From Solirubrobacterales bacterium (lineage in GTDB: Bacteria; Actinomycetota; UBA4738; HRBIN12): a stretch of 36,380 bases of DNA. Under the pieces are notes generated by a model that had not been told where the DNA came from, searched no databases, and saw nothing but the letters and a program-made list of their open reading frames with translations. Position 1 is the stretch's first letter. The number at the start of each line of letters is the position of its first letter. Where the stretch lies: contig JBLNAW010000080.1 in NCBI GenBank assembly GCA_050259555.1, positions 1 through 36,380 of the forward strand, read 5' to 3'. The translations under genes and the position numbers were made by a program. This document shows, piece by piece, positions 4,971 to 28,686 of this stretch.

Positions 4971-6041
4971 TCAGCAGATCCTGGGGAGCTGATCGCCCGC
5001 GAGCATGATGAGCGGCCTCGTCGCGCCGAGCCCCGTGCGGAGCCCGACCTTCGGCGGGCCCTCGCGCGCCTCGCCCACGAGCGCGGCATGCTCGCCCGCA
5101 GGGGTTGAGCGCGCGGCGGCGAGCACCGCCTCGGCGTCCTCGGGCGCGACGATCGCGACGCAGACCCCCTCGTTCGCGACGTAGAGCGGATCGAGGCCGA
5201 GCATCTCGCACGCGGCCTTCACGGGCGGGAGCACGGGGATCACAGCCTCGTCGGCCGTCATCGAGACGGAGGAGGCCTCGGCGAGCTCGTTCAGCACGCT
5301 CGCGACGCCGCCCCGCGTCGCGTCGCGCAGGACGCGAACGTCGCCGGCGGCGAGCATCGCGGCCACGAGCTCGGTGAGGGGTTGCGTGTCGCTCGAGAGC
5401 TCGCCCCGGAACTCGATCCCCGCGCGACGCGACATCACCGCCACGCCGTGCGAGGCGACCGGACCGCTCACGAGGATGCGATCGCCTGGGCGGGCGCGCT
5501 CGGGGCCGATCTCGACGCCGTCGGGGACGAGGCCCAGCCCTGACGTGATCACGAACAGGCCGTCGGCGCTCCCGTGCTCGACGACCTTGGTGTCACCGGT
5601 CACGAGCGCGACCCCAGCCCGCTCGCACGCTCGCGCCATCGCGGTGACGACGAGGCCGAGATCCTCGAGCGGCAGCCCCTCCTCCAGGATCAGCGCGGCC
5701 GAGAGGAACAACGGTCGAGCGCCCATCATCGCCAGGTCGTTCACCGTGCCGTTGACGGCGAGCTCGCCGATGTTCGAGCCGGGGAAGAACGCCGGCGTGA
5801 CGACGAACGCGTCCGTCGTGAACGCGAGGCGCTGCCCGCCGGCCTCGACCACGGCCGCGTCGCCGAGGCGCGCGAGCTCCGAGCCGCCGTGCGCGTCGAG
5901 GATCGGCACGAAGACGTCGCGGATCAGCTGCTGCGTGAGCTTGCCGCCGCTCCCGTGCCCGAGCAGGACCGTCGCGCCCGGCGGCAGCGGGACCGGGCAA
6001 CGCAGGACGAACTCGGTCGCGAGTTCGTCCGCCTCGCTCAC
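4971..6041 (-). CDS. hypE: Hydrogenase maturation protein HypE (carbamoyl dehydratase)
   Basis: AIR-synthase-like fold signatures are present ([31 protein letters not shown]) along with the diagnostic C-terminal PRIC. The GTG at 6041 follows GGAGG by 7 nt and overlaps the hypD stop (GTGA 6038-6041). The rest of the 659-aa track ORF is an Arg-rich over-extension. Confidence 0.92.
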
Positions 6042-7141
6042 GCCGTTGCCTCCACGCGGCGACGGCCGGCCAGGAAGTAGGCGGCGCATGCGCCCTCGCT
6101 CGAGACCATCGGTGCCCCGAGCGGCGACTCGGGCGTGCAGAGCGTGCCGAACGCGGGGCAGTCGTGGGGCTTCGCGCGGCCGCGGAGGACGTCGCCGGCG
6201 ATGCAGATCTCGGATTCGCTCGCGGGCTCGCCCTCGCGCGGGAAGAGGAGCTCGGCGTCGTGGGCGCGGTAGGCCTCGCGGAGACGCAGGCCGCTGTTCG
6301 GGATCACGCCGATCCCGCGCCATGCCCGGTCGCAGGGCTCGAAGACCTCGGCGACGACGGCACGGGCCGGAGCGTTGCCGTCGCGGACGACGGCGCGCAC
6401 GTACTGGTTCTCGACCTCGGCGCGGCCCTCCTCGAGCTGCGCGACGGCCATCCGGATCCCCTCGAGCAGGTCGACGGGCTCGAACCCGGTGACGACGATC
6501 GGCACGCCGAAGTCGCGCGCGATCGGCTCGTAGTCGCGCCAGCCCTCGATCGCGCACACGTGACCGGGCGCGAGGAACCCCTGCACGCGATTCCCGGGCG
6601 AGACGAGGATCGCCATGATCGCCGGCGGCACGAGCACGTGCGCGACGAGCAGCGCGAAGTTGTCGATCCCGAGCGCCTTCGCCTGCTTCACCGCCATCGC
6701 GTTCGCCGGCGCGGTGGTCTCGAACCCGACGGCGAAGAACACCACGGTCTTGTCCGGGTTCCGGCGGGCGACCTCGAGCGCATCGAGCGGCGAATACACG
6801 ACGCGGGCGTCCCCGCCGGCGGCGCGCGCCATGAACAGGTCCTCGCTCGAGCCCGGCACGCGGAGCATGTCGCCGAACGAGCACAGGATCGCGTCGGGCC
6901 GCTTCGCGATCGCGATCGCCTCGTCGATCAGCGCGAGCGGCGTGACGCACACCGGGCAGCCCGGGCCGTGCACGAGCTCGACCTGCGGCGGCAGCAGCTG
7001 GTCGATGCCCTGGCGGATCAGCGTGTGGGTCTGCCCGCCGCAGACCTCCATCAGCGTCCAGGGCCGGGTGACGATCCGCGCGATGTCGTGGAGGAGCGCT
7101 CGCGCGATCCGGTCGTCCCGGTACTCGTCGACGAACCTCAT
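6038..7141 (-). CDS. hypD: Hydrogenase maturation protein HypD ([4Fe-4S] scaffold)
   Basis: Starts MRFVDEYRD. It contains [16 protein letters not shown] and PGHVC, plus the C-terminal CX14CX6CX16C cluster motif ([40 protein letters not shown]). The ATG overlaps the hypC stop (ATGA 7138-7141). Confidence 0.93.
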
Positions 7142-7446
7142 CCCTCCGCCCCCGCCGCCTTCGTGGGGCGGTAGTCCTCGGCGCGGACCCCCTCGGGGCC
7201 CTGTGGGAGGTCGATGTCCTCGAGGTTGCCCATCTCGGCGAGCAGCTCGTAGGAGCGCTTGGCCTCCTCCTCGTCCACGACGCTGATCGCGAACCCGACG
7301 TGGATCACGACCCACGAGCCGACGCCGATCTCGGGCGCGTACTCGAGGCACGCCGAACGCGTGATGCCGCCGAAGTCGACGGTGCCCATGCGGATGCCGT
7401 CCTCGTCGCGGACGTCGATGACCTTCCCGGGAACCCCGAGGCACAT
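7138..7446 (-). CDS. hypC: Hydrogenase assembly chaperone HypC/HupF
   Basis: The N-terminus MCLGVPGKV has the essential Cys2, and the core shows the family's ...VHVGFAI... pattern. At 102 aa it has a longer acidic/Pro-rich tail than typical HypC. Confidence 0.9.
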
Positions 7447-7455
7447 GTGGGTGAC

Positions 7456-9738
7456 CTACCCTTCGAGTCGTGCGTGCGCGACGAGCACCTGCCCGAGCGC
7501 GATCCCCCCATCGCCGACCGGCGCCTGGCGGGGAACGTACACCTCGAAGTCGCAGGTCTCCAAGCGCGAGGTGACGTCGGACAAGAGCAGGTCGTTCTGG
7601 AAGACACCGCCGCCCAGGCACACGCGATTCATCCCGGATCCACCCCGCATCGCACGGCAGACCTCGAGGATCGCGGCGGCGAGCGTCCGGTGGAACCGGC
7701 CGGCGACCTCGCCCGGCGCGCGGCCCTTCACGAGGTCCTTCACGACCGCGGCCACGATCGGGCGCGTGTCGAGCACGAGCCGCCCGTCCTCCATCGAGAC
7801 GTCGAAGGGATACTCACGGGTCGCGCTCGAGAGCGCCGCCTGCTCGAGCAGCATCGCGGCCTGGCCCTCGTAGCTCGCCTCGTGGCAGATGCCGGCGAGC
7901 GCCGAGACGGCGTCGAACAGCCGCCCTCCCGACGTCGTCAACGGGGACACGAGCCCGGCGCGCAGCTGCCCGAGGACCTTGTCGGAGTCCTCGGGCAGAT
8001 GCCCGTCCATCAGGCCGAACGCCTGGTCCAGGACTCCGGCGTCCTCGGCGTGCGCGAGCGCCATCCGCCACGGGTGCAGGACGGCGGCATCGCCGCCGGG
8101 CTGCCGAACCGGACGCAGGTGCCCGAGGCGCTCGGCGTGCCGCGCGTCGCACGAGAGGAACTCGCCGCCCCAGCTTGTGCCGTCCTCGCCGAGCCCGAAC
8201 CCGTCGAACGCGACGCCGATCACCTGGCCCTCGAGGCGGTGCTCGGCCATCGTCGCCACGACGTGCGCGTGGTGGTGTTGGACGGCGACGGGGTGCAGGC
8301 CCGTCTCCTCGGCGAACCGCGTCGAGAGGAAGTCCGGGTGCAGATCGTGTGCGACGACCTCGGGCTCGATGCCGAAGATCCACTTGTAGCGCTGGTAGGC
8401 GTCGGTGTACGCCTGCATCGCCTCCTCGGTGTCGAGGTCGCCGATGTGCTGCGACAGGAACGCGCGCGTCCCGGCGGCCAGGCAGAAGGCGCCGTGCAGC
8501 TCGGCTCCGGCGCCGAGCATCGGCTTCACGGCCGCCGGGAGCTCGATCGGCGCCGGCGCGTAGCTTCGTGCTCGGCGCAGCACGATGGGGGCGCTCCGCC
8601 AGCAGCGGGTGACCGGGTCGTCGTACCGAGACACGATCTCGCGGTCGTGCAGGACGAAGGCATCGGCGACGCCCTCGAGCCGCCGCAGCGCCTCCTCGTT
8701 CTCGGTGCAGATCGGTTCGTCCGAGAGGTTCCCGCTGGTCATCACGAGCGGCGCGCCGACCTCGCGCAGCAGCAGGTGGTGGAGCGGCGTCGAGGGGAGC
8801 ATCACGCCCTGCCGGCGGTGCCCGGGCGCGACCGACGGCGCGAGCGTCCCCCGGTCCTTCACGAGCGCGATCGGGGCCTGCGGAGACGAGAGCAGGCACT
8901 CCTCGGTCGCCGAGAGCTCGAAGCGCTCGACGGCTGCGGCGAGGTCCGGGACCATCACCGCGAACGGCTTGTCGGGCCGGTGCTTGCGCCGGCGCAGCTC
9001 GGCGACGACGCGCTCGTCCGTCGCGAGGCTCGCGAGCTGGAACCCTCCGAGACCCTTCAGGGCGACGACCTTGCCCTTGGAGAGCAACGCGGCGGCCCGC
9101 TCGATCGGGTCGCCGGACACCTTCTTTCCCTTGCCGTCGACGAGCAGCAGCTGCGGCCCGCAGACGGGACACGCGATGGGCTCGGCGTGGAACCGCCGGT
9201 CGGCGGGGTCGCGGTACTCGCGCTCGCAGTCGGCGCACATCGGGAACACCCGCATGCTCGTCCGCTCGCGGTCGTACGGCAGCGACTCGATGATCGTGAA
9301 GCGCGGTCCGCAGTCCGTGCAGTTGATGAAGGCGTAGCGATGGCGCCGATCGCCGGGGTCGAGCAGCTCGGCGAGGCAGGCGGGGCACGTCGCGACGTCC
9401 GGCGACACCAGCCGGTCCCCGGCGTCCTCGTCGAGGCTCTCGTCGACCTCGAAGCTCGCGAACCCGGCGAGGCGGGCGGGCGCCCATCGCACGTCCTCGA
9501 TGCGCGCGAGCGGGGGCGCCTCGGCCGAGATCGCGGCACAGAACGCGTCGAGGTCGGGCTCGAGGCCCTCGGCGAGGATCTCGACGACGCCACCGCGGTT
9601 GCGGACCCAACCGCTCACGCCGTACCGATCCGCGAGACGCCAGACGAAGGGCCGGAAACCGACCCCTTGGACGACCCCCCTGACCTCCACGGACCGTGCG
9701 GACATCGAGGGCCTCGACGGAGCTTTCGCCTTGGCCAT
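7456..9738 (-). CDS. hypF: Carbamoyltransferase HypF
   Basis: It has an acylphosphatase domain ([18 protein letters not shown]) and two zinc-finger pairs (CPACLAEL / CTDCGPRF / CADCEREY / CPVCGPQL). A YrdC-like region and a Kae1-like C-terminal domain (HHHAH) follow. An alternative start is the ATG at 9705 (MSARSVEV). Confidence 0.92.
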
Positions 9739-9892
9739 CTCCGCAGCAATCGTCGTCGGGCGACGCTCGCTCGGATTGGGTCGCTCGACCCTTGGTCACA
9801 AGGGCAACCGGCCCCGAGGATGCCATCGTCGGAGCGCGCGCGCCGCTCGGACGTTCAGCCGACAACGCGGACCGGATTGGTCCGTTGAACGA

Positions 9893-10429
9893 TCAGCAGT
9901 CGGGTGGTTCGGCGTGATGCTCGACGTCGGGCGCCGCGTCCCGCAACCACGCGTCGACGACCGCGACGGCCTCCTCGACGAGCACCGGCACGACGGCCTC
10001 GACCTCGTTCGAGAGCCGTGCGCCCTCGGTGATCGTGGACTGGACGCCGAGGAGCGCGATCTCCTCCGGAGCATCCGCGTGCTGCCCCGCGAGGACGAGG
10101 TGATGGACGATGTCGAGATCCCGGAACGTCACCTGGGCGATGCAGGGCGAGAGCATGTCGCCGTCGAACAGCACCACGGCACCCGGCTCCCGGCCGACGT
10201 CGACACAGTCGATGACGAGGACGTGGGTGGCGCCGTCGAGCTCCGCGAAGTCGCGCTCCATCTCCGCCGAGCACAGGAGTCGGACCCCCGCGGGCATGCG
10301 CTCACGGAGCAGGTTCACGACCACCGCTCCGACCTCGGCGTCGCCGCAGGCGCCGTCCACGCCGAGGACGACGACGTCGGCCGCGCGGGCGCGCATCGCA
10401 GGTGCAACCGGGGGCCTCGGTCCGGCCAT
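9893..10429 (-). CDS. HybD/HyaD-family hydrogenase maturation endopeptidase-like protein, divergent (catalytic motifs degenerate)
   Basis: The length and block order match the family: VVVLGVDGACGDAEVG, HVLVIDCVD, ALLGVQ. However the GxGN Asn is lost, and the metal-ligand His position (SxHxxG in the paralog at 12942-13412) reads FRDLD. The start is uncertain (10429, or 10396 for MRARAADVVVLGV). Confidence 0.6.
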   Translation of the reverse strand: MAGPRPPVAPAMRARAADVVVLGVDGACGDAEVGAVVVNLLRERMPAGVRLLCSAEMERDFAELDGATHVLVIDCVDVGREPGAVVLFDGDMLSPCIAQVTFRDLDIVHHLVLAGQHADAPEEIALLGVQSTITEGARLSNEVEAVVPVLVEEAVAVVDAWLRDAAPDVEHHAEPPDC

Positions 10430-10488
10430 GCCGGACCAACCCTAGTCCACTCTTCCGCGGCCCGAGGTGGACCCTTCGGCCCCCGCTC

Positions 10489-11757
10489 CTAGTGACGACC
10501 GGCTCGCTCGAGCTCCCGGACCTCGTCGATCGGGAACACCGCGAACCTCGGCTTGGCCTTCGCCGCCTTCGCCCGTGCCTTCGCCTCGGCCATCGCGGCC
10601 TCCGAGGCCGCCACGTCGTCCAACGTGTAGATCGGGAAGTTCTCCACGATGAACAGGTAGGCGAGCGCCACCGCCGACGCGAGGCCGAGCACGATGATCG
10701 TCTCCATCAGCGAAGGGATGTACCAGCCGCCGTTGGCCTCGACGAGGCCGGTCATCGTCACGTTGAACCGGAACCCCCATGTGCCGAAGATCGCGAGGAG
10801 CGAGGCGACGACCATGCTCTTCTCGGATCGTCGGAGGTCGCGGCTCGCGAACATCGCGAGCGGGAGCGCGACGCCGATCCCGAGCTCGATCAGGGCGAAG
10901 TTGCCGTAGAGGGTCCCGCTCAGCAGCTCGTCGAACACGCCTCGGACGGCGTAGTCCGCGATCCGCAGCACGAGGTAGATGGACATCACGAGGACCGTGA
11001 TCGGCATCATGTCGCGCACGATCCGCATGTGGACCGGCCGCCCGTACACGCGGCGGGCGATCACGTTCTCGAGCAGGACCACCGGCGGGCCGATGTAGAA
11101 GAACGTCATGACGGCATAGACCGGCAGGAGCTGTGACCACCACAGCGGGTCGAGGCGCCCCTTCGTGATCACGTAGAGCGAGACGAGTGCCGACTGGTGG
11201 AACACCGGCAGGAAGCACGCCAGCAGCAGCAGGGGCGCGTGGATCTTGTGGAGGACCCAGTGCAACGGCTTCCACGGCACGCGCTCTTCGAAGATGGCGA
11301 AGAACTCGATGACCTGGACCACGGTGTACGAGCCGACGCAGAAGAACAGCTCGAACATCACCGAGTGGAAGCCCCACTGGTACACCGGGCGGTAGGCGTT
11401 GTACCACTGCCCGAGGTCCATCACGAGCGCCGCGCACAGCATCAGGTACCCGAGCATCGAGACGACGAACGCGCCGCGCTCGACGTCGCGGTACCGCTCG
11501 CGGCCGAGGAAGTAGATCATGAACATCGTGGCGTAGCCGGCGCCGGCCAGGGAGACGGCGCTCAGCTTCCACCACGTCCAGAAGGACCATGCCCACCGGT
11601 CGGTCAGGTTGGTGACGGCGCCCAGCCCCACCACGAACCGGTAGCCGAGGAGCACGATCGTGACGCCCAGGATCATGAGCAACACGATCCGGAACGGCGT
11701 GATCGCGAACGTCCAGCGTCGGCGGGTCGGCGACCAGGGTGTCGCGCTCGGCTTCAT
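10489..11757 (-). CDS. NrfD/PsrC-family integral membrane quinone-interacting subunit (HybB-like)
   Basis: About 420 aa with roughly 8-10 predicted TM helices. Size and hydropathy pattern fit HybB/NrfD/DsrP proteins. It is translationally coupled to the upstream FeS subunit (ATGA 11754-11757). The C-terminal tail is Ala/Lys-rich and cytoplasmic-looking. Confidence 0.8.
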   Translation of the reverse strand: MKPSATPWSPTRRRWTFAITPFRIVLLMILGVTIVLLGYRFVVGLGAVTNLTDRWAWSFWTWWKLSAVSLAGAGYATMFMIYFLGRERYRDVERGAFVVSMLGYLMLCAALVMDLGQWYNAYRPVYQWGFHSVMFELFFCVGSYTVVQVIEFFAIFEERVPWKPLHWVLHKIHAPLLLLACFLPVFHQSALVSLYVITKGRLDPLWWSQLLPVYAVMTFFYIGPPVVLLENVIARRVYGRPVHMRIVRDMMPITVLVMSIYLVLRIADYAVRGVFDELLSGTLYGNFALIELGIGVALPLAMFASRDLRRSEKSMVVASLLAIFGTWGFRFNVTMTGLVEANGGWYIPSLMETIIVLGLASAVALAYLFIVENFPIYTLDDVAASEAAMAEAKARAKAAKAKPRFAVFPIDEVRELERAGRH

Positions 11758-12803
11758 CGGGCGGCCACCTCCTCCTTCACCTCGACGCCCGCAGCTGCGT
11801 TCGCCTCAGCCTCCTCGCGCTCGCGAACGAGCCTCTGGCGGCGGGCGAACAGGGCCATGATCGTGACGGTGAACCCCGCCGCGAACGGCGGCAGGATCCG
11901 CGTGACCTCCCACGTGTAGGTGGGCAGCGGATCGGTCGGCAGGCTCGTCCGGAAGCCGAGCTCCTCGAAGGGGACGTCCGAGATGTACATGACCGAGGTT
12001 CCGCCGACCTCGGTCTCGCCGTACACGTGGCGGACGTAGCTCCGATCCGCGTTGATCCTGCGCCAGGCCTCAGCGAGAAGCTCGCCTCGGTGTCCGAACG
12101 TGAGCGTGCCCACGGGGCAGGCCTCGGCGCAGGCCGTCGGCTCGCCCTGCGAGGTGCGCTCGGGGCAGAGGTCGCACTTCTGGATGTGGCCGAACGTCTT
12201 GTCCCACTCGAACGTGGGGACGCTGAACGGGCACGCCATCAGGCAGTACCGGCAACCGACGCACCGGTTCGCGTCGTACAGGACCGGGCCTTCCTCGCTC
12301 TTGTGCAGCGCCGCCACGAAACAGGCCGAGGCACATGCCGGCTCGAGGCAGTGCATGCACTGCGACTTCACGTACCGGCGGGTCAGACGCCGGCGCGGTC
12401 CCAGGCGCGTGTCCTGGATCATCTCCACGCTGTTCGATCGCACGGCGGTCCAGTTGGTCGAGGCGAGCGCGGCGTCGGGGCCCGTCGCGGGCTGGTCGTC
12501 CCGCCACTCGAGGTCGTTGTCGAGCTTGCAGGCCCGGACGCACTTGCCGCAGCCGACGCACCGCGTGAGATCGATGAGGAGGCCGGGATCGCCGGCGTGC
12601 TCACGGGCGAGCTCCTCGGGGTTGGACTCGGGAACGAGACCGCCGGAGGCGTGAGCCGAGGTGGCCGAGGTGGCCACCACCCCCGCCGTTCCGGCCGCCA
12701 CCGTTGCCGCCCTGAGGAACGACCGCCGCGAGAGCGCCGCCCGATCGCGCTCCGGAGGCATGTCGGCGTCCGAGGCCGGATGACGGAGATCTTTCGTTGT
12801 CAT
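11754..12803 (-). CDS. Tat-exported 4x[4Fe-4S] ferredoxin-type subunit with C-terminal TM anchor (HybA/NrfC/DsrO-like)
   Basis: The twin-arginine signal is SRRSFLRAATVAAGTAGVVATSATSAHA-SG. Four Cys clusters are present: CVGCGKCVRAC, CMHCLEPACASAC, CVGCRYCLMACP and CDLCPERTSQGEPTACAEACP. The C-terminal helix is LPPFAAGFTVTIMALFA. I chose the ATG at 12803 (GGGAG 7 nt upstream); the track start at 12899 looks over-extended. Confidence 0.85.
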   Translation of the reverse strand: MTTKDLRHPASDADMPPERDRAALSRRSFLRAATVAAGTAGVVATSATSAHASGGLVPESNPEELAREHAGDPGLLIDLTRCVGCGKCVRACKLDNDLEWRDDQPATGPDAALASTNWTAVRSNSVEMIQDTRLGPRRRLTRRYVKSQCMHCLEPACASACFVAALHKSEEGPVLYDANRCVGCRYCLMACPFSVPTFEWDKTFGHIQKCDLCPERTSQGEPTACAEACPVGTLTFGHRGELLAEAWRRINADRSYVRHVYGETEVGGTSVMYISDVPFEELGFRTSLPTDPLPTYTWEVTRILPPFAAGFTVTIMALFARRQRLVREREEAEANAAAGVEVKEEVAAR

Positions 12804-12941
12804 GACCGTTCTCCCGGACGTTCGTCTACCGAGAGCTTCGGTCTGCCGAACCGAGCGGCCATCGGGCTGTCGTCCCTCGCGTGCCTGGGACCTGCCCAAG
12901 GTTGCGTAGGGCGGCCACCCTAGTGCGGCCGAGGAGGGCCC

Positions 12942-13412
12942 CTAGGACGTGAGCGCGAGCGCCTCGGCGACCACCCGAGCCACGACCTCGGGCAGGGATG
13001 AGGCGACCGGCTCGGACGGACCGTGGCCCGCGGTCAGGTCCGCGATCTCGATCCCGATGACCACGACCCGAGGGGCCGTCTCGAGCGCGGCCGCGAGCCC
13101 CACGGCCTCTGCCACGCCGAACCCGTGCGACGAGAGCGAGGACCCGAACTCCGCCGGCAGACCCTCGGGGCCGGCCTCGGCGCGCACGATCGTGCCGGGC
13201 GACCGGCCGCCGCGAGGTGCACGCACGGCGTCCACGACGATCACGGCCTCGGCGTCCCGGAGCAGGTCCACGACATGCAGGCCGGCACTGGTCTCGACGA
13301 CCTCCACGCCGAGCGCCTCGAGCTCGGGACGCGCGGCACGGACCGCGAGGAGGCCCACGGCATCGTCACCGACATCGGGGTTGCCGACGCCGACGACGCG
13401 GACCCGGGTCAC
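12942..13412 (-). CDS. [NiFe]-hydrogenase maturation endopeptidase (canonical; cognate to the adjacent large subunit)
   Basis: VVGVGNPDVGDDAVG, VIVVDAV and SLSSHGFG supply the three metal-ligand blocks of the HycI/HybD/FrhD family. The GTG at 13412 overlaps the large-subunit stop (GTGA 13409-13412). The remaining 330 aa of the track ORF is a shadow frame. Confidence 0.85.
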   Translation of the reverse strand: MTRVRVVGVGNPDVGDDAVGLLAVRAARPELEALGVEVVETSAGLHVVDLLRDAEAVIVVDAVRAPRGGRSPGTIVRAEAGPEGLPAEFGSSLSSHGFGVAEAVGLAAALETAPRVVVIGIEIADLTAGHGPSEPVASSLPEVVARVVAEALALTS

Positions 13413-14701
13413 ACCCGCTGGATGTCGAGGCTGAGGAAGTGGGTCGCGCACGAGATGCAGGGATCGTAGTTGCGCACGACCATCTCGCACAGCCGCGTGA
13501 GCTGCTCGTCCGGCTCGTCGAGCACGCCGGGGACGAACCGTCGCAGGTCCTCCTCCATGTGCCGGAGGTTCTGCGAGGTCGGCGGCACGATCTTCGCCTC
13601 GAGGATCGTGCCGTCCTCCGCCACGTCGTAGCGGTGGTAGAGCGTCCCGCGCGGCGCCTCGGTCGCCCACATCCCGCGGCCGGCCTTCGGCACGACCTCG
13701 GCCATCGAGGGCTCGGGCGGCACGTAGCCACGGATGATGCGGATCGCCTCTTCGATCGCGAGCGCGGCCTCGGCCACGCGCGCGGCCATCGAGAAGAACG
13801 GATCGCCCTCGGGCACCGTGAGCCCCGCGCGAGCCATGCACTCCCTCGCGACCGGCGTGAGCAGGTCCGCGTTCAGGTTCACGCGGGCGAGCGGCCCCGT
13901 CGAGTACGGCGTCTGCGTATCGGTCATCACCGAGTGGAGCGCGTTCGAGTGCTCCACGTGGACCTCCTGCGTGACGGCCTCGTACTCGGAGAACGCCCAG
14001 CGCCGCCCGGTCGTCGAGGCCATCGAGCCCTCGTTGATCGGGTACTCGGTCGGGTGGACCATCGAGACCAGCTCGACCTCGCGCGGGAGCTTCGGCGTCG
14101 GGAGCGACGCGACGAGGTCGGCGACGCCCGGCATCTGCTCCAGCGCCCACTCCAGCCGTGGCAGCAGCGGCTCGAGCTCGCGCGTGCGCGCCGCCCGCGA
14201 GAACCCGCCGACGCGGGGCGAGACCGGGTGGATCTCGCGGCCGCCGACCTTCTCCATGATGTCGTTGCCGATGCGCTTGATGTCGAGCGCCATCTTCACG
14301 AGGTCGGGGTGGTCCTTGGCCATCTCGATCGCGCTCCGATAGCCGAGGAAGTCCGGCGCCGCGAGCAGGAAGATGTGGAGGATGTGGCTCTCGATCCACT
14401 CGCCGCAATACAGGAGCCGGCGGAGCTCGCGGGTGCCCTCGGGCACCTGCACGCCGAAGAGCTGCTCGAGCCCGTGGATCGCGCTCATCTGGTACGCGAC
14501 CGGGCAGATCCCGCAGATCCTCGGCACGATGTCGGGCACCTCGCTGAAGTTCCGTCCCTGCAGGAACGCCTCGAAGAACCGTGGGGGCTCGTAGATCTCC
14601 AGGCGGAGGTCGAGGATCTCGCCGTCCTTCGCGGTGATGTGGAGCGCGCCCTCACCCTCGACGCGGGCGATGACCGGCACTTCGACCTGACGGTGCGTCA
14701 C
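13409..14701 (-). CDS. hyhL: [NiFe]-hydrogenase large (alpha) subunit, group 3b-like
   Basis: ARVEGEGAL and the L1 motif PRICGICPVAY are present. The L2 motif VRNYDPCISCATH is followed by a 9-residue tail (FLSLDIQRV) for proteolytic removal. At 430 aa its size is typical of group 3 enzymes. The start is a GTG that overlaps the small-subunit stop. Confidence 0.93.
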   Translation of the reverse strand: MTHRQVEVPVIARVEGEGALHITAKDGEILDLRLEIYEPPRFFEAFLQGRNFSEVPDIVPRICGICPVAYQMSAIHGLEQLFGVQVPEGTRELRRLLYCGEWIESHILHIFLLAAPDFLGYRSAIEMAKDHPDLVKMALDIKRIGNDIMEKVGGREIHPVSPRVGGFSRAARTRELEPLLPRLEWALEQMPGVADLVASLPTPKLPREVELVSMVHPTEYPINEGSMASTTGRRWAFSEYEAVTQEVHVEHSNALHSVMTDTQTPYSTGPLARVNLNADLLTPVARECMARAGLTVPEGDPFFSMAARVAEAALAIEEAIRIIRGYVPPEPSMAEVVPKAGRGMWATEAPRGTLYHRYDVAEDGTILEAKIVPPTSQNLRHMEEDLRRFVPGVLDEPDEQLTRLCEMVVRNYDPCISCATHFLSLDIQRV

Positions 14702-15516
14702 GGGGTCCTCACCTCCTCCTTCTCGCCGTGGCCGTCAGCGAACGCGTCGGCCGCCTCCTTGAACGGCGGCGCCCATCCGGTGATGAACCGGAACTTCTCG
14801 CTCGTCGCCTTCGGCGTGAGCCCAAGCTCGATGAACCGTCGCCCGAGCGCATCGGTGTTGTTCGAGGGCTGAGCGGGCCCGAAGCACCCGTAGCAGCCCC
14901 GGCCGAACCCCGGGCAGAGCGCGCCGCAGCCGGTCCGCGTGACGGGGCCGAGGCACGGCTCCCCCTTCGCGACGAGCACGCAGACGTAGCCCCGGCGCTT
15001 GCACTCGACGCAGACCGGCGAGGTCGAGAGGCGCGGCATCGCGCCTCGCAGGAGCGCCGTGATCACCGTGAGCAGCTCGCCCCGGTCGATCGGGCACCCG
15101 GTGAGCTCGAGATCGACGTCGACGTAGTCGGCGATCGGGTGCGAGTCCTCGAGCGAGTCGATGAACTCGGGGGTCGGGTAGACGGTTCGGATGAACTCCT
15201 CGTGCTTGCCGGTCGCGTTCCGCAGGGCCTGGATCCCGCCGGCGGTCGCGCAGGCACCGATCGTGATGAGGACCGAGGACGCCAGGCGGATGTCGCCGAT
15301 CTGCTCGATCTGCTCGGGCGTCGAGACCGATCCCTCGACCAGGGTCACGTCGTACGGCCCCGGGCGCATGTCGGACGACGCCTCGGCGAAGTTCACGATC
15401 TCGATCGCGCCGGCGAGCTCGAGGAGCGCCTCCTCGGCGTCGAGCAGCTGGAGCTGGCACCCGTCACAGGAGGCCATCTTGAAGACCGCGACGCGCGGCT
15501 TGCCGTTGTCGCTCAC
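14698..15516 (-). CDS. hyhS: [NiFe]-hydrogenase small (delta) subunit, group 3b-like; no Tat signal
   Basis: VAVFKMASCDGCQ, TIGACATAGGI and LTGCP form the proximal-cluster motifs. The C-terminal Cys-rich region is CVECKRRGYVCV...CLGPVTRTGCGALCPGFGRGCYGC. There is no RRxFxK signal, so a cytoplasmic location is inferred. The GTG at 15516 follows GGAGG and overlaps the gamma-subunit stop (GTGA). Confidence 0.9.
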   Translation of the reverse strand: MSDNGKPRVAVFKMASCDGCQLQLLDAEEALLELAGAIEIVNFAEASSDMRPGPYDVTLVEGSVSTPEQIEQIGDIRLASSVLITIGACATAGGIQALRNATGKHEEFIRTVYPTPEFIDSLEDSHPIADYVDVDLELTGCPIDRGELLTVITALLRGAMPRLSTSPVCVECKRRGYVCVLVAKGEPCLGPVTRTGCGALCPGFGRGCYGCFGPAQPSNNTDALGRRFIELGLTPKATSEKFRFITGWAPPFKEAADAFADGHGEKEEVRTP

Positions 15517-16388
15517 AGGTCCTTCACCTCCATCAACGGGGAGATGACGTCCCATCGGAAGACCGGGCCGTCCTTGCACACGAAGGCGGCGCCGAGCTGG
15601 CAGTGCCCGCACAGCCCGATGCCGCACTGCATGTGCCGCTCCATCGAGCACCACACGTGCTCGGCGGGCACGCCGAGATCGACGAGCCCCCGGCCCGCGA
15701 ACCGCATCATGATCTCGGGACCGCACATGAACGCGGTCGTGCGCTCGGGCTCGATCCTGGCCTTCGGGAACAGGGTCATGACGACGCCGACGTCGTAGAG
15801 CCACGTGCCGACGGCCTCGTCGACCGTGAGGTGGAGCTCGACGCCCAGGCGCTCCATCAGCGCGACCCACTCGTCGAGCTGGTCCTTGTAGGGCAACAGG
15901 TCCGGCGTGCGTGCGCCGAGCAGCAGGATCAGGCGCCGGTACTTGTCGCGGCGGCGCATCGCCGACTCGATCGCGGGACGCACGGGGCAGACGCCGACAC
16001 CGCCGGCGACGACGACCAGGTCGCCGCCCTCGGCCTCGTGCAGCGGCCAGGGCCTGCCGAACGGGCCGCGGATCCCGAGCTCGTCGCCGGGCTTCAGGTC
16101 GCGGAACGCGTTCGTCACGCGCCCGACGTGCCGGACCGTGTGGCCGAGGCGATGCGGGTGCATCGGATCGGACGAGATCGAGATCGCGACCTCGCCGACG
16201 CCGAACAGGTACAGCATGTTGAACTGGCCCGCCGCGAACGTGTAGCCCTCGCCGTCGCCGTCGCGCCACGTCATCCAGTAGGTCGCGGACTCCGGCGTCT
16301 CGGGGACGATGCGCTGGATCACGGCGGTCCGCATCGGGCCGCCCTCGGGCTGGGTCACCCGCACGTCACGCATCTCGGTCACGCTCAT
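15513..16388 (-). CDS. hyhG: Hydrogenase gamma subunit: FAD/NAD(P)-binding oxidoreductase with [2Fe-2S] (sulfhydrogenase HydG / AsrB-like)
   Basis: It has a ferredoxin-reductase-type fold (GQFNMLY, RGPFG, VVVAGGVGVCPVRP) and the C-terminal cluster motif CGIGLCGHCQ. The ATG at 16388 overlaps the beta-subunit stop (ATGA). Confidence 0.88.
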   Translation of the reverse strand: MSVTEMRDVRVTQPEGGPMRTAVIQRIVPETPESATYWMTWRDGDGEGYTFAAGQFNMLYLFGVGEVAISISSDPMHPHRLGHTVRHVGRVTNAFRDLKPGDELGIRGPFGRPWPLHEAEGGDLVVVAGGVGVCPVRPAIESAMRRRDKYRRLILLLGARTPDLLPYKDQLDEWVALMERLGVELHLTVDEAVGTWLYDVGVVMTLFPKARIEPERTTAFMCGPEIMMRFAGRGLVDLGVPAEHVWCSMERHMQCGIGLCGHCQLGAAFVCKDGPVFRWDVISPLMEVKDL

Positions 16389-17488
16389 CGGGCCACCACC
16401 TCCACCGCGCCGTCGGTCGCTCGGATCGCGACGATCTCCTCGGTGACGTCGATCCCGACCGGGCACCACGTGATGCAGCGGCCGCAGCCGACGCAACCGG
16501 ACGTCCCGTACTGATCGATCCACGAAGCGAACTTGTGCGTGAGCCACTGGCGGTACCTCGAGGCTCGGCTCCCGCGGACGACCTCGCCGGCCGCCCAGCT
16601 GTACTCGGCGCTGAAGCAGCTCGCCCACTCACGCGTCCTCGTGGCCACGTCGCCCGAGAGCGACACGCCGTCGAGGACGTCGTGGCAGAAGCACGTCGGG
16701 CAGACGTTCGTGCAGTTCGCGCAGGCCAGGCAGCGCTCGGCGACGTCCTGCCAGCGGGGGTGGGTCCGGTTGCGGTACAGGAGGTCCGGCATGTCCGAGG
16801 TCTCGAGCGTGCGGCCCATCGCGCCCTTCGCGCGCTCGGTCACCGCGAGCGAGGCCTTCTCCTCATCGGCGGTCGCCTGCCGCTCCGCGACGACGGACAG
16901 GAACTCCTCGCCGCGCGAGCTCCCGGCCTCGACGGTGAAGCCGTCCTCGATCTCGGTGAGCGCGAGGTCGAACCCGATCGAGCAACGCGGCCCGGTTCCC
17001 ATCGAGACGCAGAAGCACGTGCCGCCCGGGACGGCGCAGTTCACGCCCACGAACAGCGCCTGCTCGCGCCGCCGCCGGTAGGCGGGGTCGAGATCCATGA
17101 ACACGCGGTCCTGCACCGCGATCGCGTGCAGATCGCACGAACGAAGCCCGACGAAGGCGAGCGGCTGGTCGTCCTCGGGCACGGCCTCGTGCCGCATCCC
17201 GTTCCCGTTCCGCGAGATCGTTCCGAGCAGCTCCCGGGGCGGGAACAGGAAGCGCTTCCCCGCGTCGGGCCCGTGGGCCCAATCGAACAGCCGGTCGTCC
17301 CCGGTCTGGGTCAGCTCGTAGTGCGCGGGTCCCTGGGTCTCACGGATCCCCGCAGGAAGGTCCTCGACGCCGTCGATGTGCTCGAGCACGATCGCGCCGT
17401 CTCGGACGGTGGGTCCGATCACGTCGTATCCCTGTTCGGCGAGCAGCCGGATGAGCCGGTCGAGCCCGTCTCGGGCCAGATGCCACAT
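16385..17488 (-). CDS. hyhB: Hydrogenase beta subunit: 4Fe-4S protein (sulfhydrogenase HydB / AsrA-like)
   Basis: Two ferredoxin-type motifs are present (CLACANCTNVCPTCFC and CVGCGRCITWCPVGI), plus the Cys cluster GGTCFCVSMG. The ATG at 17488 has a perfect AGGAGG 6 nt upstream, so it is preferred over the track start at 17515. Confidence 0.88.
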   Translation of the reverse strand: MWHLARDGLDRLIRLLAEQGYDVIGPTVRDGAIVLEHIDGVEDLPAGIRETQGPAHYELTQTGDDRLFDWAHGPDAGKRFLFPPRELLGTISRNGNGMRHEAVPEDDQPLAFVGLRSCDLHAIAVQDRVFMDLDPAYRRRREQALFVGVNCAVPGGTCFCVSMGTGPRCSIGFDLALTEIEDGFTVEAGSSRGEEFLSVVAERQATADEEKASLAVTERAKGAMGRTLETSDMPDLLYRNRTHPRWQDVAERCLACANCTNVCPTCFCHDVLDGVSLSGDVATRTREWASCFSAEYSWAAGEVVRGSRASRYRQWLTHKFASWIDQYGTSGCVGCGRCITWCPVGIDVTEEIVAIRATDGAVEVVAR

Positions 17489-17659
17489 GGGGTTCCTCCT
17501 GGAGGTTGCCTCCATCCCGCACTCTCCCGGATGCGCCCGAGGCGACGGGGGGGCGGAAGCCCTGGGGCCTATGGGCCCGCCGCCTTAGGGTGCCTCGCAA
17601 CGGCTGAGGGCGCTCGAGGCCACCGTAGCCCGCGAAGATCGGCGCCGCAACGGACCGCG

Positions 17660-21705: not shown

Positions 21706-22497
21706 CTATCCCTCGGCGCGCACGAGCAGCCCGCGGCGGCGGCGGACCCGACGATCGGCCCAGGAGAACAGGGCATCCACCGCGATCCCGACGAGCATGA
21801 TGACGACCATCGTCGCGAGCACGAGCGGCGTGTCGTACTGCGCGCCGGCCCTGGCGATCAGGTGCCCCAACCCGCGCGCGCCGGCGACGAACAGCTCGGC
21901 GGCCATCAGGGCGCGCCAGGCGATCGCCCACGCCTGCTGGAGGCCCGCGATGTACCCGGGCACGGCCGCCGGGAGCACCACGCGCGCATACAGCACCCAA
22001 CCCCTCGCGCCGAGCGTTCGACCGGCGCGTACCAGGTGCGGCGGCACCATCCGCACGGCCGCGGCGGTACCGATCGCGACCGCCGGCACCGCACCGATGA
22101 CGACGACGAACAGGACCGCCTTCTCGTTGATCCCGAACCACAGCATGGCGAGCGGCAGCCAGGCGATCGACGGGAGCGCCTGCAGACCGACCACGAGCGT
22201 TCCGACGCTTCGCTGGAACAGCTCCCAGCGGGCGCTCGCGAGCCCGATGGGCGTCCCGAGCAGGACCGCCACCACGAGTCCGATGGACAGACGGAACACG
22301 CTCCGGTAGGCGACGACGAGGAGCCCGTTCGATCCGCCGAGGTGCGATACGAGCGCATCGCCCACGCTCGCCGGCGAGGGCAGCAGCACGGAGTTCCAGA
22401 TGCCCGCCGTGTAGACCGCCCACCAGACGAGGACCACGGCCGCGACGATCGCGAGCCTAGGCCAGACCTGGCCGAGCACCCTCCTCGGACGAGACAA
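21706..22497 (-). CDS. ABC transporter permease, NitT/TauT (sulfonate/nitrate/taurine) family
   Basis: It has 6 TM segments and an EAA-like loop (RAGRTLGARGWVLYARVVLPAAVP), as in SsuC/TauC. The TTG start at 22497 has AAGGAGGTG 7 nt upstream and overlaps the ATPase 3-prime end by 41 nt. Confidence 0.85.
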   Translation of the reverse strand: MSRPRRVLGQVWPRLAIVAAVVLVWWAVYTAGIWNSVLLPSPASVGDALVSHLGGSNGLLVVAYRSVFRLSIGLVVAVLLGTPIGLASARWELFQRSVGTLVVGLQALPSIAWLPLAMLWFGINEKAVLFVVVIGAVPAVAIGTAAAVRMVPPHLVRAGRTLGARGWVLYARVVLPAAVPGYIAGLQQAWAIAWRALMAAELFVAGARGLGHLIARAGAQYDTPLVLATMVVIMLVGIAVDALFSWADRRVRRRRGLLVRAEG

Positions 22498-23302
22498 CCT
22501 TCTCCACCTCCTTCAGCAGGTGGTCGTGCACGTCGACGACCACCTTCGACAGGAGGACATCCTCGAACGCGCGCGGCCGCGGCGACGAGATGCGATGCTC
22601 GGCGACGAAGGTCCCGGGGCGCGCGGACATCAGCACGACGCGATCGGCGAGGAACACCGCCTCGCGCACGTTGTGGGTCACGAAGACGAAGGTGTTGCGG
22701 GTCTCGAGCCACACGGCCTGGAGCTCGCGCTGGAGGATCTCCCGGGACTGGGCGTCGAGTGCACCGAACGGCTCGTCGGCGAGCAGGATCTCGGGCTGGC
22801 AGGCGAGCGCCCGTGCGAGGGTCGCGCGCTGCCGCATCCCGGGCGACAGCTCGTGCGGCTGCGCGAGCGCGAAGCGCGCGAGGTGGACCTTCTCGAGCCA
22901 CGCCATCGCACGCTCGGTCCGCTCGCGCCTCGCCGTGCCATTGAGCTCGAGCGCGAACTCCACGTTGCCGAGCACGCTCATCCAGGGGAACAGCGACGGC
23001 TCCTGGAAGAGCACGGCCCGGTCGGGTCCGGGTCCCGAGACCGGCCGGCCGTCCATCAGCACCTGGCCCTCGTCCGGCCGCTCGAGCCCGGCGATCAGGT
23101 TCAGGAGCGTCGACTTCCCGCAGCCCGAGGGCCCGATCAGGCAGACGAACTCGCCCTTCGCGATGTCCAGCGTCGCGCGCTCGAGCGCCTGCACGCGCTC
23201 GCCGCTGCCCTGCACGTATGACTTCGAGGCGCCGAGGATCGAGAGCTTGGGGGCCGAGGCTCCGGCCTGGGGAACCACGTGGAGCGCGGGCTTCGACGTC
23301 AT
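22457..23302 (-). CDS. ABC transporter ATP-binding protein, NitT/TauT family (SsuB/TauB-like)
   Basis: Walker A is GPSGCGKST, the signature is LSPGMRQR, and Walker B is ILLADEPFGALD. I chose the ATG at 23302 (MTSKPAL), 7 nt after the binding-protein stop. Confidence 0.88.
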   Translation of the reverse strand: MTSKPALHVVPQAGASAPKLSILGASKSYVQGSGERVQALERATLDIAKGEFVCLIGPSGCGKSTLLNLIAGLERPDEGQVLMDGRPVSGPGPDRAVLFQEPSLFPWMSVLGNVEFALELNGTARRERTERAMAWLEKVHLARFALAQPHELSPGMRQRATLARALACQPEILLADEPFGALDAQSREILQRELQAVWLETRNTFVFVTHNVREAVFLADRVVLMSARPGTFVAEHRISSPRPRAFEDVLLSKVVVDVHDHLLKEVEKVVSSEEGARPGLA

Positions 23303-23309
23303 CGCTGCC

Positions 23310-24341
23310 TCATCCGGGTACCTCGACGGGCGGAAGGCCCTCATCGTCGAGGACGGCGTTCAGAGGGTCAAGCCGGTAGATCCCGAGCGCGCGGCCGGGG
23401 TCCTCCTCGAGCACGCCGAGCACGTGCGCGTCCTCCGCGACCTGCTCGATCGCCGCCGGCACCGGCTCCCACGTGAACGTGAGCTTCCCCCACGCCGCCG
23501 CGAGGACCGAGGCGTCCATCGGCGGGGCGCCGGCCCACACGAGCCGCCGTTCCGCGATCGCCTGGGCTCGGAGCGGCGAGGCCTGCGCGAACCGGATCGC
23601 CGCGACGTTGGCCTCGACGAGCCTGCGGACGACGTCGGGGTGAGCGTCCATGTAGATCGTCGAGACGACGAGGCTCGCGGTGAGGAACCCGCCCGGCGGC
23701 CAGAGGTCCGACTCGTCGACGAGGACCTCGCCGACGCCCTTCGCGACGAGGTACGTCGGGTACGGCTCCGGCACCCATGCGCCGTCCAGCCGGTCCGCCC
23801 GGAAGAGCTGGAGGAGCTGCGAGCCGTCGGCCTCGGTGATCGCGACGTCACCCCCCTCGTCGGTCGCCTCGAGCCCGTTCTCGTGGAGCCAGGTCCGCAG
23901 CGCGATGTCCTGCGTGTTCCCGACGTTCGGCACGGCGATCCGTTTGCCGTGCAGATCTTCCGGGCTCGCGATGTCCGAACCCCGGCGGACGACGAGCGAG
24001 GCTCCGCCGACCGCGGCGCCCGAGACGACGGCGACCTTGCCCGATTGCAGGTACAGGCTGATCGCCGGCCACGGGCCCATGTAGCTCGCGTCGATCGAGC
24101 CCGAGAGGAGGGCGACCCCGGCCTCGGTCCCCGAGTTGAACGTGTGCACCTCGACCTTCGTCGGAGCGAGGGTCTCGGCGAAGATCCCCGAGCCGATCCC
24201 GACATGCGCGGGCGCATGGGTGAGGGTAGGGAACACACCGAGCCGGAGCACCTCGGCGCTCCCCCGCGCCCGGGCCTCGGAGCCGGAGCATCCGGGAACG
24301 AGGAGCGAGAGCGTGAAGGCGAGGACGACGAGCCGCCTCAC
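23310..24341 (-). CDS. ABC substrate-binding lipoprotein, NMT1/SsuA/TauA-like
   Basis: The lipoprotein signal has lipobox LLVPGC. It is a periplasmic-binding-protein type 2 fold of about 340 aa and sits first in an SBP-ATPase-permease operon. Confidence 0.8.
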   Translation of the reverse strand: MRRLVVLAFTLSLLVPGCSGSEARARGSAEVLRLGVFPTLTHAPAHVGIGSGIFAETLAPTKVEVHTFNSGTEAGVALLSGSIDASYMGPWPAISLYLQSGKVAVVSGAAVGGASLVVRRGSDIASPEDLHGKRIAVPNVGNTQDIALRTWLHENGLEATDEGGDVAITEADGSQLLQLFRADRLDGAWVPEPYPTYLVAKGVGEVLVDESDLWPPGGFLTASLVVSTIYMDAHPDVVRRLVEANVAAIRFAQASPLRAQAIAERRLVWAGAPPMDASVLAAAWGKLTFTWEPVPAAIEQVAEDAHVLGVLEEDPGRALGIYRLDPLNAVLDDEGLPPVEVPG

Positions 24342-24383
24342 GTCGCGATGCCCCCTCGAGTCACGCCGCCACGGTACCGGACC

Positions 24384-27201: not shown

Positions 27202-27210
27202 CACGTCTCC

Positions 27211-28296: not shown

Positions 28297-28304
28297 AGGG
28301 AACT

Positions 28305-28368
28305 CCTTTCGTTGACCGGCGAGTTGGGTCTGCCGACTCGGTCTCCGGTGGTCCGGTCAACCGAAAGG
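28305..28368 (-). promoter_or_regulatory. Long imperfect hairpin in the sbp leader that base-pairs the Shine-Dalgarno sequence
   Basis: In mRNA sense, CCUUUCGGUUGACCGG (28368-28353) pairs with CCGGUCAACGAAAGG (28319-28305), giving 15 bp with one bulged C. The 3-prime arm contains the SD GAAAGGAG, 8 nt before the ATG at 28296. Confidence 0.45.
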
Positions 28369-28478: not shown

Positions 28479-28652
28479 TCAGACGAGGCGGATCTTCTCG
28501 GCCATCTCGATCTGGACGACCTTGCCGTCCTGCACCACGAGCAGCACGGTCCCGTACTTCAGGCGGCGCAGCAGCTCGACCACCTGGAGGAGGACGGCTT
28601 GCTCCTCCTCCGAGATGGGGGCGAACTCCGCCGGTCGCTGTTCCGGGGCCAT
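28479..28652 (-). CDS. YezD/DUF2292-like small protein (57 aa), absent from the supplied ORF track
   Basis: My own translation gives MAPEQRPAEFAPISEEEQAVLLQVVELLRRLKYGTVLLVVQDGKVVQIEMAEKIRLV*. The C-terminal YGxVxxxVxDGKVVQIExxEKIRL pattern is the hallmark of the YezD family. It sits immediately upstream of the sulfate importer. Codon third positions are GC-rich, as in neighbouring genes. Confidence 0.7.
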   Translation of the reverse strand: MAPEQRPAEFAPISEEEQAVLLQVVELLRRLKYGTVLLVVQDGKVVQIEMAEKIRLV

Positions 28653-28686
28653 CCACCCGGGACGTTACCGCATCGGCGAGCCCGAC

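Follow-up and report, generated by a model that had tools for sequence, protein, structure and literature searches.

Introduction

Why should genes for an electron-transfer module facing the outside of the cell lie within the gene cluster of a cytoplasmic hydrogenase? The question is posed by a 36,380-nt stretch of DNA with a G+C content of about 70%, called the window here, which is the entire contig JBLNAW010000080.1 of a metagenome-assembled genome (MAG; GCA_050259555.1) of a Solirubrobacterales bacterium. Its minus strand encodes FeS1, a ferredoxin with a signal for twin-arginine translocation (Tat), and NrfD1, a polytopic membrane protein. An earlier note on this DNA had placed the pair between the operon of a group 3b [NiFe] hydrogenase with its maturation protease (hyhBGSL-Prot1) and the maturation genes hypFCDE. 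This placement holds, except that the pair does not directly precede hypF: a third gene, Prot2, which encodes a degenerate homologue of the maturation proteases, intervenes. The note had also proposed that the pair and the 3b enzyme face opposite sides of the membrane, with no group 1 hydrogenase subunits in cis, and our analysis agrees on both counts. As set out below, the arrangement very probably arose from a hydrogenase supercluster that later lost a group 1 operon.

Results

Sequence features of FeS1 and NrfD1

Genes were called from open reading frames (ORFs) and third-position GC content (GC3), and families were assigned with Pfam and NCBIfam models at curated cut-offs. The N terminus of FeS1 carries the motif SRRSFLR, a hydrophobic stretch, and then AHA-SG; R26, R27, and L30 are invariant among 19 aligned homologues (51 to 93% identity), as are all 16 cysteines of its four ferredoxin-type motifs. 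Pfam gave a match to Fer4_11 (E value, 4e-21). Hydropathy analysis revealed a single C-terminal hydrophobic helix, at approximately residues 300 to 320, followed by RRQR, in a region that aligns to the C-terminal tails of FdnH and HybA. Alignment and hydropathy thus bear out the description, in the earlier note, of a minus-strand pair at these coordinates headed by a 16-Cys Tat ferredoxin with a C-terminal transmembrane (TM) helix.

The best NCBIfam matches of FeS1 were HmcB (NF045715; 251 bits, cut-off 420) and HybA (PRK10882; 221 bits, cut-off 263), with the models for FdnH, DsrO, DmsB, and NrfC scoring far below; by these scores, FeS1 is a relative of HybA and HmcB and the equivalog of neither. 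Among E. coli K-12 proteins taken from the genome, HybA is 32% identical (E value, 1e-49). The closest solved structure by sequence is that of E. coli FdnH (1KQF_B; E value, 2.8e-35), which has the same four-cluster domain and C-terminal TM anchor. FdnH, however, lacks its own signal peptide, hitch-hiking with FdnG, and it docks on a cytochrome b, FdnI, rather than on an NrfD-type protein. An Arg-rich insertion of 12 to 14 residues (…RLGPRRRLTRR…), at approximately residues 125 to 143 of FeS1, is otherwise found only in proteins of the type encoded at three related loci (L003, L005, and L006). We predict that FeS1, a ferredoxin, is exported by the Tat system, binds four [4Fe-4S] clusters, and is held at the outer face of the membrane by its tail anchor.

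The start codon of NrfD1 overlaps the stop codon of FeS1 as ATGA, the coupling reported before, and the membrane protein, previously described as NrfD family, matches the HybB model PRK10881 over nearly its full length but below the cut-off (214 bits; E value, 4.8e-63; cut-off, 450); the HmcC model scored 166 bits. No Pfam family matched NrfD1 at an E value of 0.01, while homologues from L003, L006, and L008 carry PF03916, and a sequence search of the PDB with NrfD1 gave no match. A Kyte-Doolittle plot showed about 10 hydrophobic helices and basic N- and C-terminal tails, from which both termini are predicted to be cytoplasmic. NrfD1 is 26% identical to E. coli HybB and keeps its residues R89, Y99, E148, and H184, along with D109, S129, E133, S95, Y141, E155, S186, R265, E291, and R329, and with them most of the channel residues that have been proposed; D58 is replaced by Lys. 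According to PMC8076601, which cites Lubek 2019, replacement of R89, Y99, E148, or H184 impairs H2 oxidation in E. coli. NrfD1 is therefore best described as a putative cofactor-less, 10-helix, quinone-reactive membrane subunit, and FeS1-NrfD1 as an apparently intact HybA/HybB-type module.

A group 1 operon between Prot2 and hypF in relatives

Related loci (numbered with the prefix L) were collected from the neighborhoods of FeS homologues, from a metagenome scan with a single FeS protein, and by exact look-ups. They include L001 (GCA_035456485.1), L007 (GCA_041643115.1), L179 (GCA_964589685.1), L182 (GCA_040960625.1), and L093, a 47.5-kb JGI contig whose proteins are 76 to 90% identical to those of the window. 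In L093 and L179, a complete Hyb-like group 1 operon lies exactly between Prot2 and the hypF leader, in the order SSU-LSU-FeS2-NrfD2-Prot3, where SSU and LSU are the small and large subunits. The SSU has a Tat signal (SRREFLR) and a C-terminal anchor, the LSU has 567 residues including a C-terminal extension, and the two are 46 to 47% identical to E. coli HybO and HybC (LSU to HybC, 46%). FeS2 is a second Tat ferredoxin, NrfD2 a second NrfD-type protein, and Prot3 a protease that keeps the full triad of metal ligands.

Synonymous divergence (dS) between L093 and L179 is the same in the operon (SSU, 0.75; LSU, 0.63; FeS2, 0.78; Prot3, 0.76) as in its flanks (HyhB, 0.57; Prot1, 0.66; FeS1, 0.77; HypF, 0.65), so the operon has co-diverged with its surroundings and was vertically inherited. 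In bootstrapped neighbor-joining (NJ) trees, L179 pairs with the operon-less L001 (100% bootstrap) and L093 with L090 and L091, of which L091 is operon-less; the FeS2 proteins of L093 and L179 are sisters (80%), as are their NrfD2 proteins (100%). These pairs of operon-bearing and operon-less sisters (L179-L001 and L093-L091) point to several separate losses. The 154-nt spacer between Prot2 and hypF in the window holds no operon remnant, and only the hypF leader is common to it and L093; in the absence of a deletion scar at this junction, the direction of change was taken from dS and the trees. These sequences are most simply explained by an operon that the common ancestor of the window-type clade already had and that the lineages of the window, L001, L091, and probably L184 lost in separate events. 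The hypF leader itself, about 75 nt long, is present in the window and in L001, L091, and L093 (in L093 downstream of Prot3) and contains GGGCCGGTTGCCCTTGTGACCAAGGGTCGAGCGACCC…CGACGATTGC and a short palindrome.

At the basal loci L180 and L181, hyhBGSL-Prot1 is followed directly by SSU-LSU-FeS-NrfD(-HycI), and the acidobacterial L008 has the order SSU-LSU-FeS-NrfD-HycI-hypFCDE. Across this uncultured Actinomycetota clade, the hydrogenase supercluster reads pncB / hyhBGSL-protease / group 1 Hyb-like operon / hypFCDE, and in the ancestor of the window-type clade it very probably contained two copies of the module, FeS1-NrfD1-Prot2 and SSU-LSU-FeS2-NrfD2-Prot3. In L181 (ENA ERZ27256953, 12601-14250), the NrfD-type gene was called as a single 549-aa product with NrfD and HycI domains, either a fusion that joins the maturation protease to the cytoplasmic C terminus of the membrane subunit or a read-through caused by an assembly error.

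Conserved linkage to hyhBGSL

The arrangement hyhBGSL-Prot1-FeS-NrfD-Prot2-hypFCDE is also found in L001, L091, and L184, and in L090 and L182 as far as these short contigs run, and the same arrangement minus Prot2 is found in L003, L006, and L096. The order hypC-hypD-hypE is repeated in L001, L003, L006, and L179. L007 (5270-20984) combines hyhBGSL-protease, an FeS-NrfD pair, a 243-aa multiheme cytochrome c, a second FeS-NrfD pair, HdrABC/MvhD-like genes, and a group 3c-like hydrogenase. Among the actinobacterial relatives, only L007 has a candidate outer-face partner, the cytochrome c, adjoining the pair. Linkage to hyh without a group 1 core in cis occurs in the window, L001, L003, L006, L007, L091, L096, and L184, and the survey of neighborhoods that the earlier note had proposed thus shows conserved linkage to hyhBGSL in at least eight independent contigs.

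Two loci call for caution. In L184 (595-kb contig, ERZ25039603; 2900-15500), all genes are full length, with scattered 1-nt frameshifts; we considered this locus as a decayed one, and as evidence of co-loss, and rejected it because the frameshift pattern is typical of long-read assembly error. Its split FeS, hypF, hypD, and hypE calls should not be taken as pseudogenes. In L005 (ENA ERZ4756919 NODE_1402, 8700-16200), deletions have removed hyhS and hyhL entirely, half of Prot1, and the greater part of both hyhG and hypD, and there are frameshifts in hyhB and hypE; FeS, NrfD, hypF, and hypC are intact. This appears to be a recently inactivated hydrogenase locus or a misassembly, and the deletions appear real. 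As hypF and hypC are intact too, the decay must be recent, and the intact FeS-NrfD pair of L005 therefore says little.

Paralogy and selection

Within one genome, FeS1 and FeS2 are 60 to 64% identical, and NrfD1 and NrfD2 are 56% identical. NrfD2 is sister to a group of L096 and NrfD1 (100% bootstrap), with NrfD1 on a long branch. Because the lost operon had its own FeS2-NrfD2, the pair in the window is not its remnant; these comparisons instead make FeS1-NrfD1-Prot2 an older paralogue of the accessory genes of a group 1 operon. One explanation put forward earlier, that the pair is a relic of a lost uptake hydrogenase, was correct as to history, in that the operon seen in L093 and L179 has been lost here, but the pair is an older paralogue rather than a leftover, and it shows no decay: its ligands are kept and its ratios of nonsynonymous to synonymous divergence (dN/dS) are 0.06 to 0.35.

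These ratios, which are rough pairwise NG86 values, range from 0.11 to 0.33 for FeS1 and from 0.06 to 0.35 for NrfD1, compared with 0.08 to 0.29 for HyhL (0.42 against the frameshift-ridden L184) and 0.12 to 0.23 for HypF. The closest pair, the window and L182 (dS, approximately 0.15 to 0.2), gave 0.20 for FeS1 and 0.06 for NrfD1; the operon-less pair of the window and L184 gave 0.24 for FeS1, 0.25 for NrfD1, and 0.19 for Prot2. Nonsynonymous divergence (dN) of the window from the sisters L001 and L179 is 0.167 and 0.177 for FeS, 0.131 and 0.130 for NrfD, and 0.263 and 0.244 for Prot2; from L091 and L093, it is 0.136 and 0.150, 0.124 and 0.121, and 0.397 and 0.420, respectively. Since dN to the operon-less and the operon-bearing sister is equal, constraint was not relaxed after the loss of the operon. 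We hold it highly probable, on these sequence comparisons, that FeS1-NrfD1-Prot2 is functional and still under selection.

Loss of nickel ligands in Prot2

Prot2 is recognized by the models of its family (PF01750, 51.8 bits, cut-off 23; TIGR00072, 56.5 bits, cut-off 47.45). The metal-binding triad of HybD, with ligand identities from the HybD crystal structure, we take to be Glu16, Asp62, and His93 (HybD numbering). When checked against the E. coli HybD sequence, Prot2 has Ala16, Asp62, and Arg93 at these positions, so that two of the three nickel ligands are lost. MAFFT, BLASTP, and HMMER alignments to E. coli HybD and HycI agree on Ala or Leu in place of Glu16 and on Arg in place of His93. 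The GN motif is lost as well.

A search of 5.8 billion proteins yielded only 38 relatives of Prot2 (48 to 100% identity). Both Glu16 and His93 are replaced in all 38, none of which has His93, whereas the other proteases in the compared loci all keep the full triad (19 of 19). The family has conserved features of its own, namely, the motifs SPC[IV]A and LAGQHADAPEE[IV]ALLGVQ and a terminal Cys; the few members with a named source, and the contexts that were read, belong to uncultured Actinomycetota. In an NJ tree, Prot2 clusters on a long branch with the group 1-type proteases and not with Prot1. Its dN/dS values are 0.19 to 0.61; that of the bona fide protease Prot3 is 0.48. Lacking two nickel ligands, Prot2 cannot serve as the protease dedicated to a large subunit encoded elsewhere. 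We had considered Prot2 as a marker of a missing large subunit and rejected it for this reason.

A conserved leader upstream of FeS1

The spacer between Prot1 and FeS1 was aligned across nine loci (the window, L001, L090 to L093, L095, L179, and L182), and its nucleotide conservation is far above that of synonymous sites. Blocks such as AGCCCGATGGC and GCTCTCGGTAGACGAACGTCCGGGAG are common to the aligned loci, and a TAGGGT box lies about 100 nt upstream. In a predicted hairpin, the 3' arm covers the Shine-Dalgarno sequence GGGAG; RNAalifold returned conserved stems with almost no covariation. L001 and L179 have additional upstream copies of a CCTAGG-containing motif. An Rfam scan of the cluster gave no match, and a scan of the spacers for terminators and promoters found neither. 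The conservation of the spacer suggests that the FeS1-NrfD1 pair has regulation of its own, and the spacer is possibly an internal promoter combined with a translational control element.

Comparison with known modules

E. coli HybA carries a Tat signal, four [4Fe-4S] clusters, and a C-terminal TM helix (PMC5902676), and HybB is predicted to have 10 TM helices (PMC8076601, PMC5902676). The pair encoded in the window matches that of hybOABCDEFG in the Tat signal, 16 cysteines, and C-terminal TM helix of the ferredoxin, in a 10-TM membrane subunit with no cofactor and the same R89, Y99, E148, and H184, in adjacent, translationally coupled genes, and in a HybD-family gene that follows. It departs from the E. 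coli pair in its low identity, with scores below the equivalog cut-offs, in the absence of HybO/HybC in cis, in the HybD-like protein without two nickel ligands, and in the Arg-rich insertion of FeS1; gene order also differs, being O-A-B-C in E. coli and SSU-LSU-FeS-NrfD in the relatives of the window. A 2021 survey of KEGG genomes recorded no HybB in Actinobacteria (PMC8076601); the host of the window is an actinobacterium.

The direct paralogue, FeS2-NrfD2 of L093 and L179, has the same architecture and genomic neighborhood, but it is preceded by the Tat SSU and the 567-aa LSU and followed by a protease with the full triad. FeS1-NrfD1, in contrast, lacks core subunits, is accompanied by a degenerate homologue of the protease, and differs further in the long branch of NrfD1 and the insertion in FeS1. 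HmcB and HmcC offer a further parallel, with HmcB as the best NCBIfam match of FeS1 and HmcC among the matches of NrfD1. A survey of Tat tail-anchored proteins found HybA-like/HybB-like pairs beside octaheme cytochromes, in Hmc, and with periplasmic [FeFe]-hydrogenases (PMC10924467). Such pairs work without a [NiFe] core, as would the pair described here, but always with a periplasmic partner encoded alongside (PMC10924467). Unlike them, FeS1-NrfD1 has no CxxCH protein encoded nearby, and a six-frame scan of the window found no Tat-like motif other than that of FeS1.

The range of partners is wide among more distant pairs as well. An FeS alignment scan of genome contigs gave, among the matches listed, distant pairs at 37 to 51% identity. 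Upstream neighbors were compared in 111 distant FeS-NrfD pairs (34 to 53% identity); they include a [NiFe] small subunit in 11 of the 111 pairs, a CCG-domain protein in 10, and an [FeFe]-hydrogenase, a multiheme cytochrome, or a molybdopterin enzyme in 6 each; in 26 pairs, from loci L009 to L168, a GcvH-like gene of the lipoyl-carrier type recurs just upstream. This agrees with the survey of tail-anchored proteins (PMC10924467): the HybA/HybB-like module is known to be promiscuous, but in the described cases its partner is encoded alongside.

The 3b hydrogenase and other genes of the window

The features of the cluster are collected in Table 1. All four Hyh subunits have Pfam and NCBIfam matches, the best being ShyA/HydA, ShyB, ShyC, and ShyD, each below its equivalog cut-off (for the large subunit, ShyA at 253 bits and HydA at 239 bits). 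The N terminus of the small subunit, VSDNGKPRVAVFKMASCDGC, has no Tat motif, and the view that this 3b-type subunit lacks a Tat signal is upheld by both the motif scan and the N terminus. From its sequence, the enzyme is assigned a four-subunit sulfhydrogenase/3b architecture with no signal peptide. Prot1 overlaps hyhL as GTGA and keeps N10, D15, D16, D62, and H93. No group 1 large or small subunit is encoded within the 36-kb contig.

TABLE 1 Features of the hydrogenase cluster in the window
Feature	Position	Strand	Description
hyhB	16385-17515	minus	Beta subunit; Fer4_22, AsrA-like (Pfam, NCBIfam)
hyhG	15513-16388	minus	FAD/NAD(P)-binding gamma subunit; NAD_binding_1, DHODB_Fe-S_bind; PRK08345
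hyhS	14698 to ~15516 (start approximate)	minus	Delta (small) subunit; Oxidored_q6; ShyD/HydD
hyhL	13409-14701	minus	430-aa [NiFe] large (alpha) subunit, sulfhydrogenase/group 3b-like; NiFeSe_Hases
Prot1	12942-13412	minus	Canonical HycI-family maturation protease of the 3b enzyme
Spacer/leader of FeS1	12804-12941	minus	138 nt, conserved (nucleotide alignment, 9 loci)
FeS1	11754-12803	minus	349 aa; predicted Tat-exported, C-tail-anchored 4x[4Fe-4S] ferredoxin, HybA/HmcB type
NrfD1	10489-11757	minus	422 aa; HybB-type polytopic membrane subunit
Prot2	9893-10429	minus	Degenerate HybD/HycI-like protein, 178 aa (alternative start, 167 aa)
hypF leader	9739 to ~9815	minus	~75 nt, conserved
hypF	7456-9738	minus	hypF domains (Pfam)
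hypC	7138-7446	minus	
hypD	6038-7141	minus	
hypE	4971-6041	minus	

Upstream of the hyh cluster, pncB lies on the opposite strand. The remaining genes of the contig encode ABC transporters of the sulfate and sulfonate types, an aldo-keto reductase (AKR), MFS and MMPL transporters, and a two-component system. The sulfate/thiosulfate-type importer set, CysPTWA, occupies 24384-28356 on the minus strand and is adjoined on the same strand by a binding protein-ATPase-permease set of the aliphatic-sulfonate/nitrate type (21706-24383). A 61-codon ORF with strong coding GC3 (28479-28664) lies beside the aldo-keto reductase gene. The synteny of cysTWA, pncB, and the AKR gene is partly repeated near the hydrogenase cluster in L005, L006, and L007.

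Discussion

The pair adjoins the cytoplasmic 3b enzyme because of its supercluster ancestry and the shared hyp genes; the adjacency is a legacy and does not in itself argue for a physical or electron-transfer link. What the pair now does is an evenly balanced question, and the reading that we favor, to the extent that its sequences and those of its relatives permit, is that it needs no group 1 core and works as a menaquinone-linked outward relay with a partner not encoded in cis. The triad FeS1-NrfD1-Prot2, selected and with its own conserved leader, would be independent of the group 1 catalytic core; electrons would be exchanged between the pool of menaquinone, at NrfD1, and the chain of clusters that FeS1 carries outside the cell, and Prot2 would serve as a nonproteolytic accessory protein. 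The ligand loss in Prot2, the long branches of NrfD1 and Prot2, the insertion in FeS1, and the separate leader all argue for divergence from hydrogenase duty. A bolder proposal, possible rather than probable, is that in uncultured Actinomycetota the three proteins constitute a new, lineage-specific respiratory module, freed from its [NiFe] core to become a stand-alone, menaquinol-linked electron outlet or inlet at the cell surface. The module may have persisted while the hydrogenase operon was lost repeatedly, may use soluble or mineral acceptors, for example, and may include its HybD-like protein as a noncatalytic partner with conserved internal and terminal Cys residues.

Several points weigh against an independent relay. 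No candidate for its redox partner is encoded in cis, and the reading draws on sequence; we know of no characterized HybA/HybB-type module without a catalytic or cytochrome partner at the outer face. That the pair has kept its place between hyh and hyp may indicate that it is still tied to H2 metabolism, and a group 1 core or another Tat enzyme may be encoded elsewhere in the genome, of which we see one contig. With dS between 0.15 and 0.8 and GC3 above 90%, the dN/dS values can be read only roughly. The trees are NJ trees of short proteins, those of FeS and NrfD disagree on the position of the L003-type pairs, and the loss of the operon is undated on individual branches.

An alternative, also raised in the earlier note and in our view unlikely, is that the pair serves a HybO/HybC-type group 1 core encoded elsewhere, as an ordinary or second H2:menaquinone membrane arm. 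Its homology to HybA/HybB, its paralogy to FeS2-NrfD2 from a genuine group 1 operon, and its place in a hydrogenase supercluster with hyp genes would all fit such a role; in L093 and L179 it stands directly upstream of the group 1 SSU-LSU, the HybOC-HybAB interaction of E. coli is labile and modular (PMC5902676), and the contig covers only 36 kb of the genome. All complete group 1 cores that we found, however, carry an FeS-NrfD pair and a protease of their own within the operon (L008, L036, L054, L093, L100, L154, L156, L160, L161, L164, L179, and L181), and the readable parts of the truncated contigs L097 and L180 conform. A Prot2 without two nickel ligands could not process the large subunit of such a core, and the evolutionary rate of the triad is unchanged by loss of the operon in cis. 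The opposite possibility, that the pair is a nonfunctional, decaying relic of a lost uptake hydrogenase, is very unlikely. A group 1 operon was indeed lost from exactly this site, Prot2 is catalytically degenerate and fast (dN/dS up to 0.6), and L005 shows that real, large deletions in hyh and hypD do occur. The ORFs of the pair are nevertheless intact in all lineages, no variation is seen in the 16 cysteines, the Tat motif, or the key HybB residues, and the upstream leader is conserved; dN/dS is like that of hyp and hyh genes, including in the operon-less comparison and that of the window with L182. The bona fide Prot3 evolves about as fast as Prot2, and the paralogue, at 56 to 64% identity to the second copy, is older than the divergence of the clade.

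We regard as most improbable a physical or electronic coupling of the pair to HyhBGSL, to give a membrane-anchored 3b hydrogenase or a sulfur- or polysulfide-reducing complex. The linkage to hyhBGSL is tight, conserved, and on one strand, with no terminator in the spacer, but supercluster ancestry explains it, the basal relatives having hyh followed by an ordinary group 1 operon. FeS1, moreover, has its own conserved leader, its Tat signal would place its clusters outside, where the NAD(P)-linked Hyh enzyme, without a signal peptide, is not expected, and no catalytic subunit of sulfur metabolism is encoded near the cluster. The earlier note had suggested a stand-alone FeS/NrfD module linked to the 3b enzyme or to sulfur chemistry; we favor the stand-alone module and find no support for either link.

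The apparent paradox of an outward-facing arm in a cytoplasmic hydrogenase locus is thus resolved without new biochemistry, by an exported group 1 enzyme that was lost several times. The interest lies in what stayed behind: a paralogous HybA/HybB arm that has outlived the enzyme, together with a HybD homologue stripped of its nickel ligands, and that is still selected. The locus amounts to a natural experiment on how modular NrfD-type respiratory complexes are. It also advises caution in annotation, in that calls of "HybA/HybB" or "hydrogenase maturation protease" do not in themselves imply that an uptake hydrogenase is encoded. Actinomycetota do possess group 1 enzymes of the Hyb type, whose presence varies between close relatives, and the persistence of the arm points to a hydrogenase-independent use of it in soil or sediment members of this phylum.

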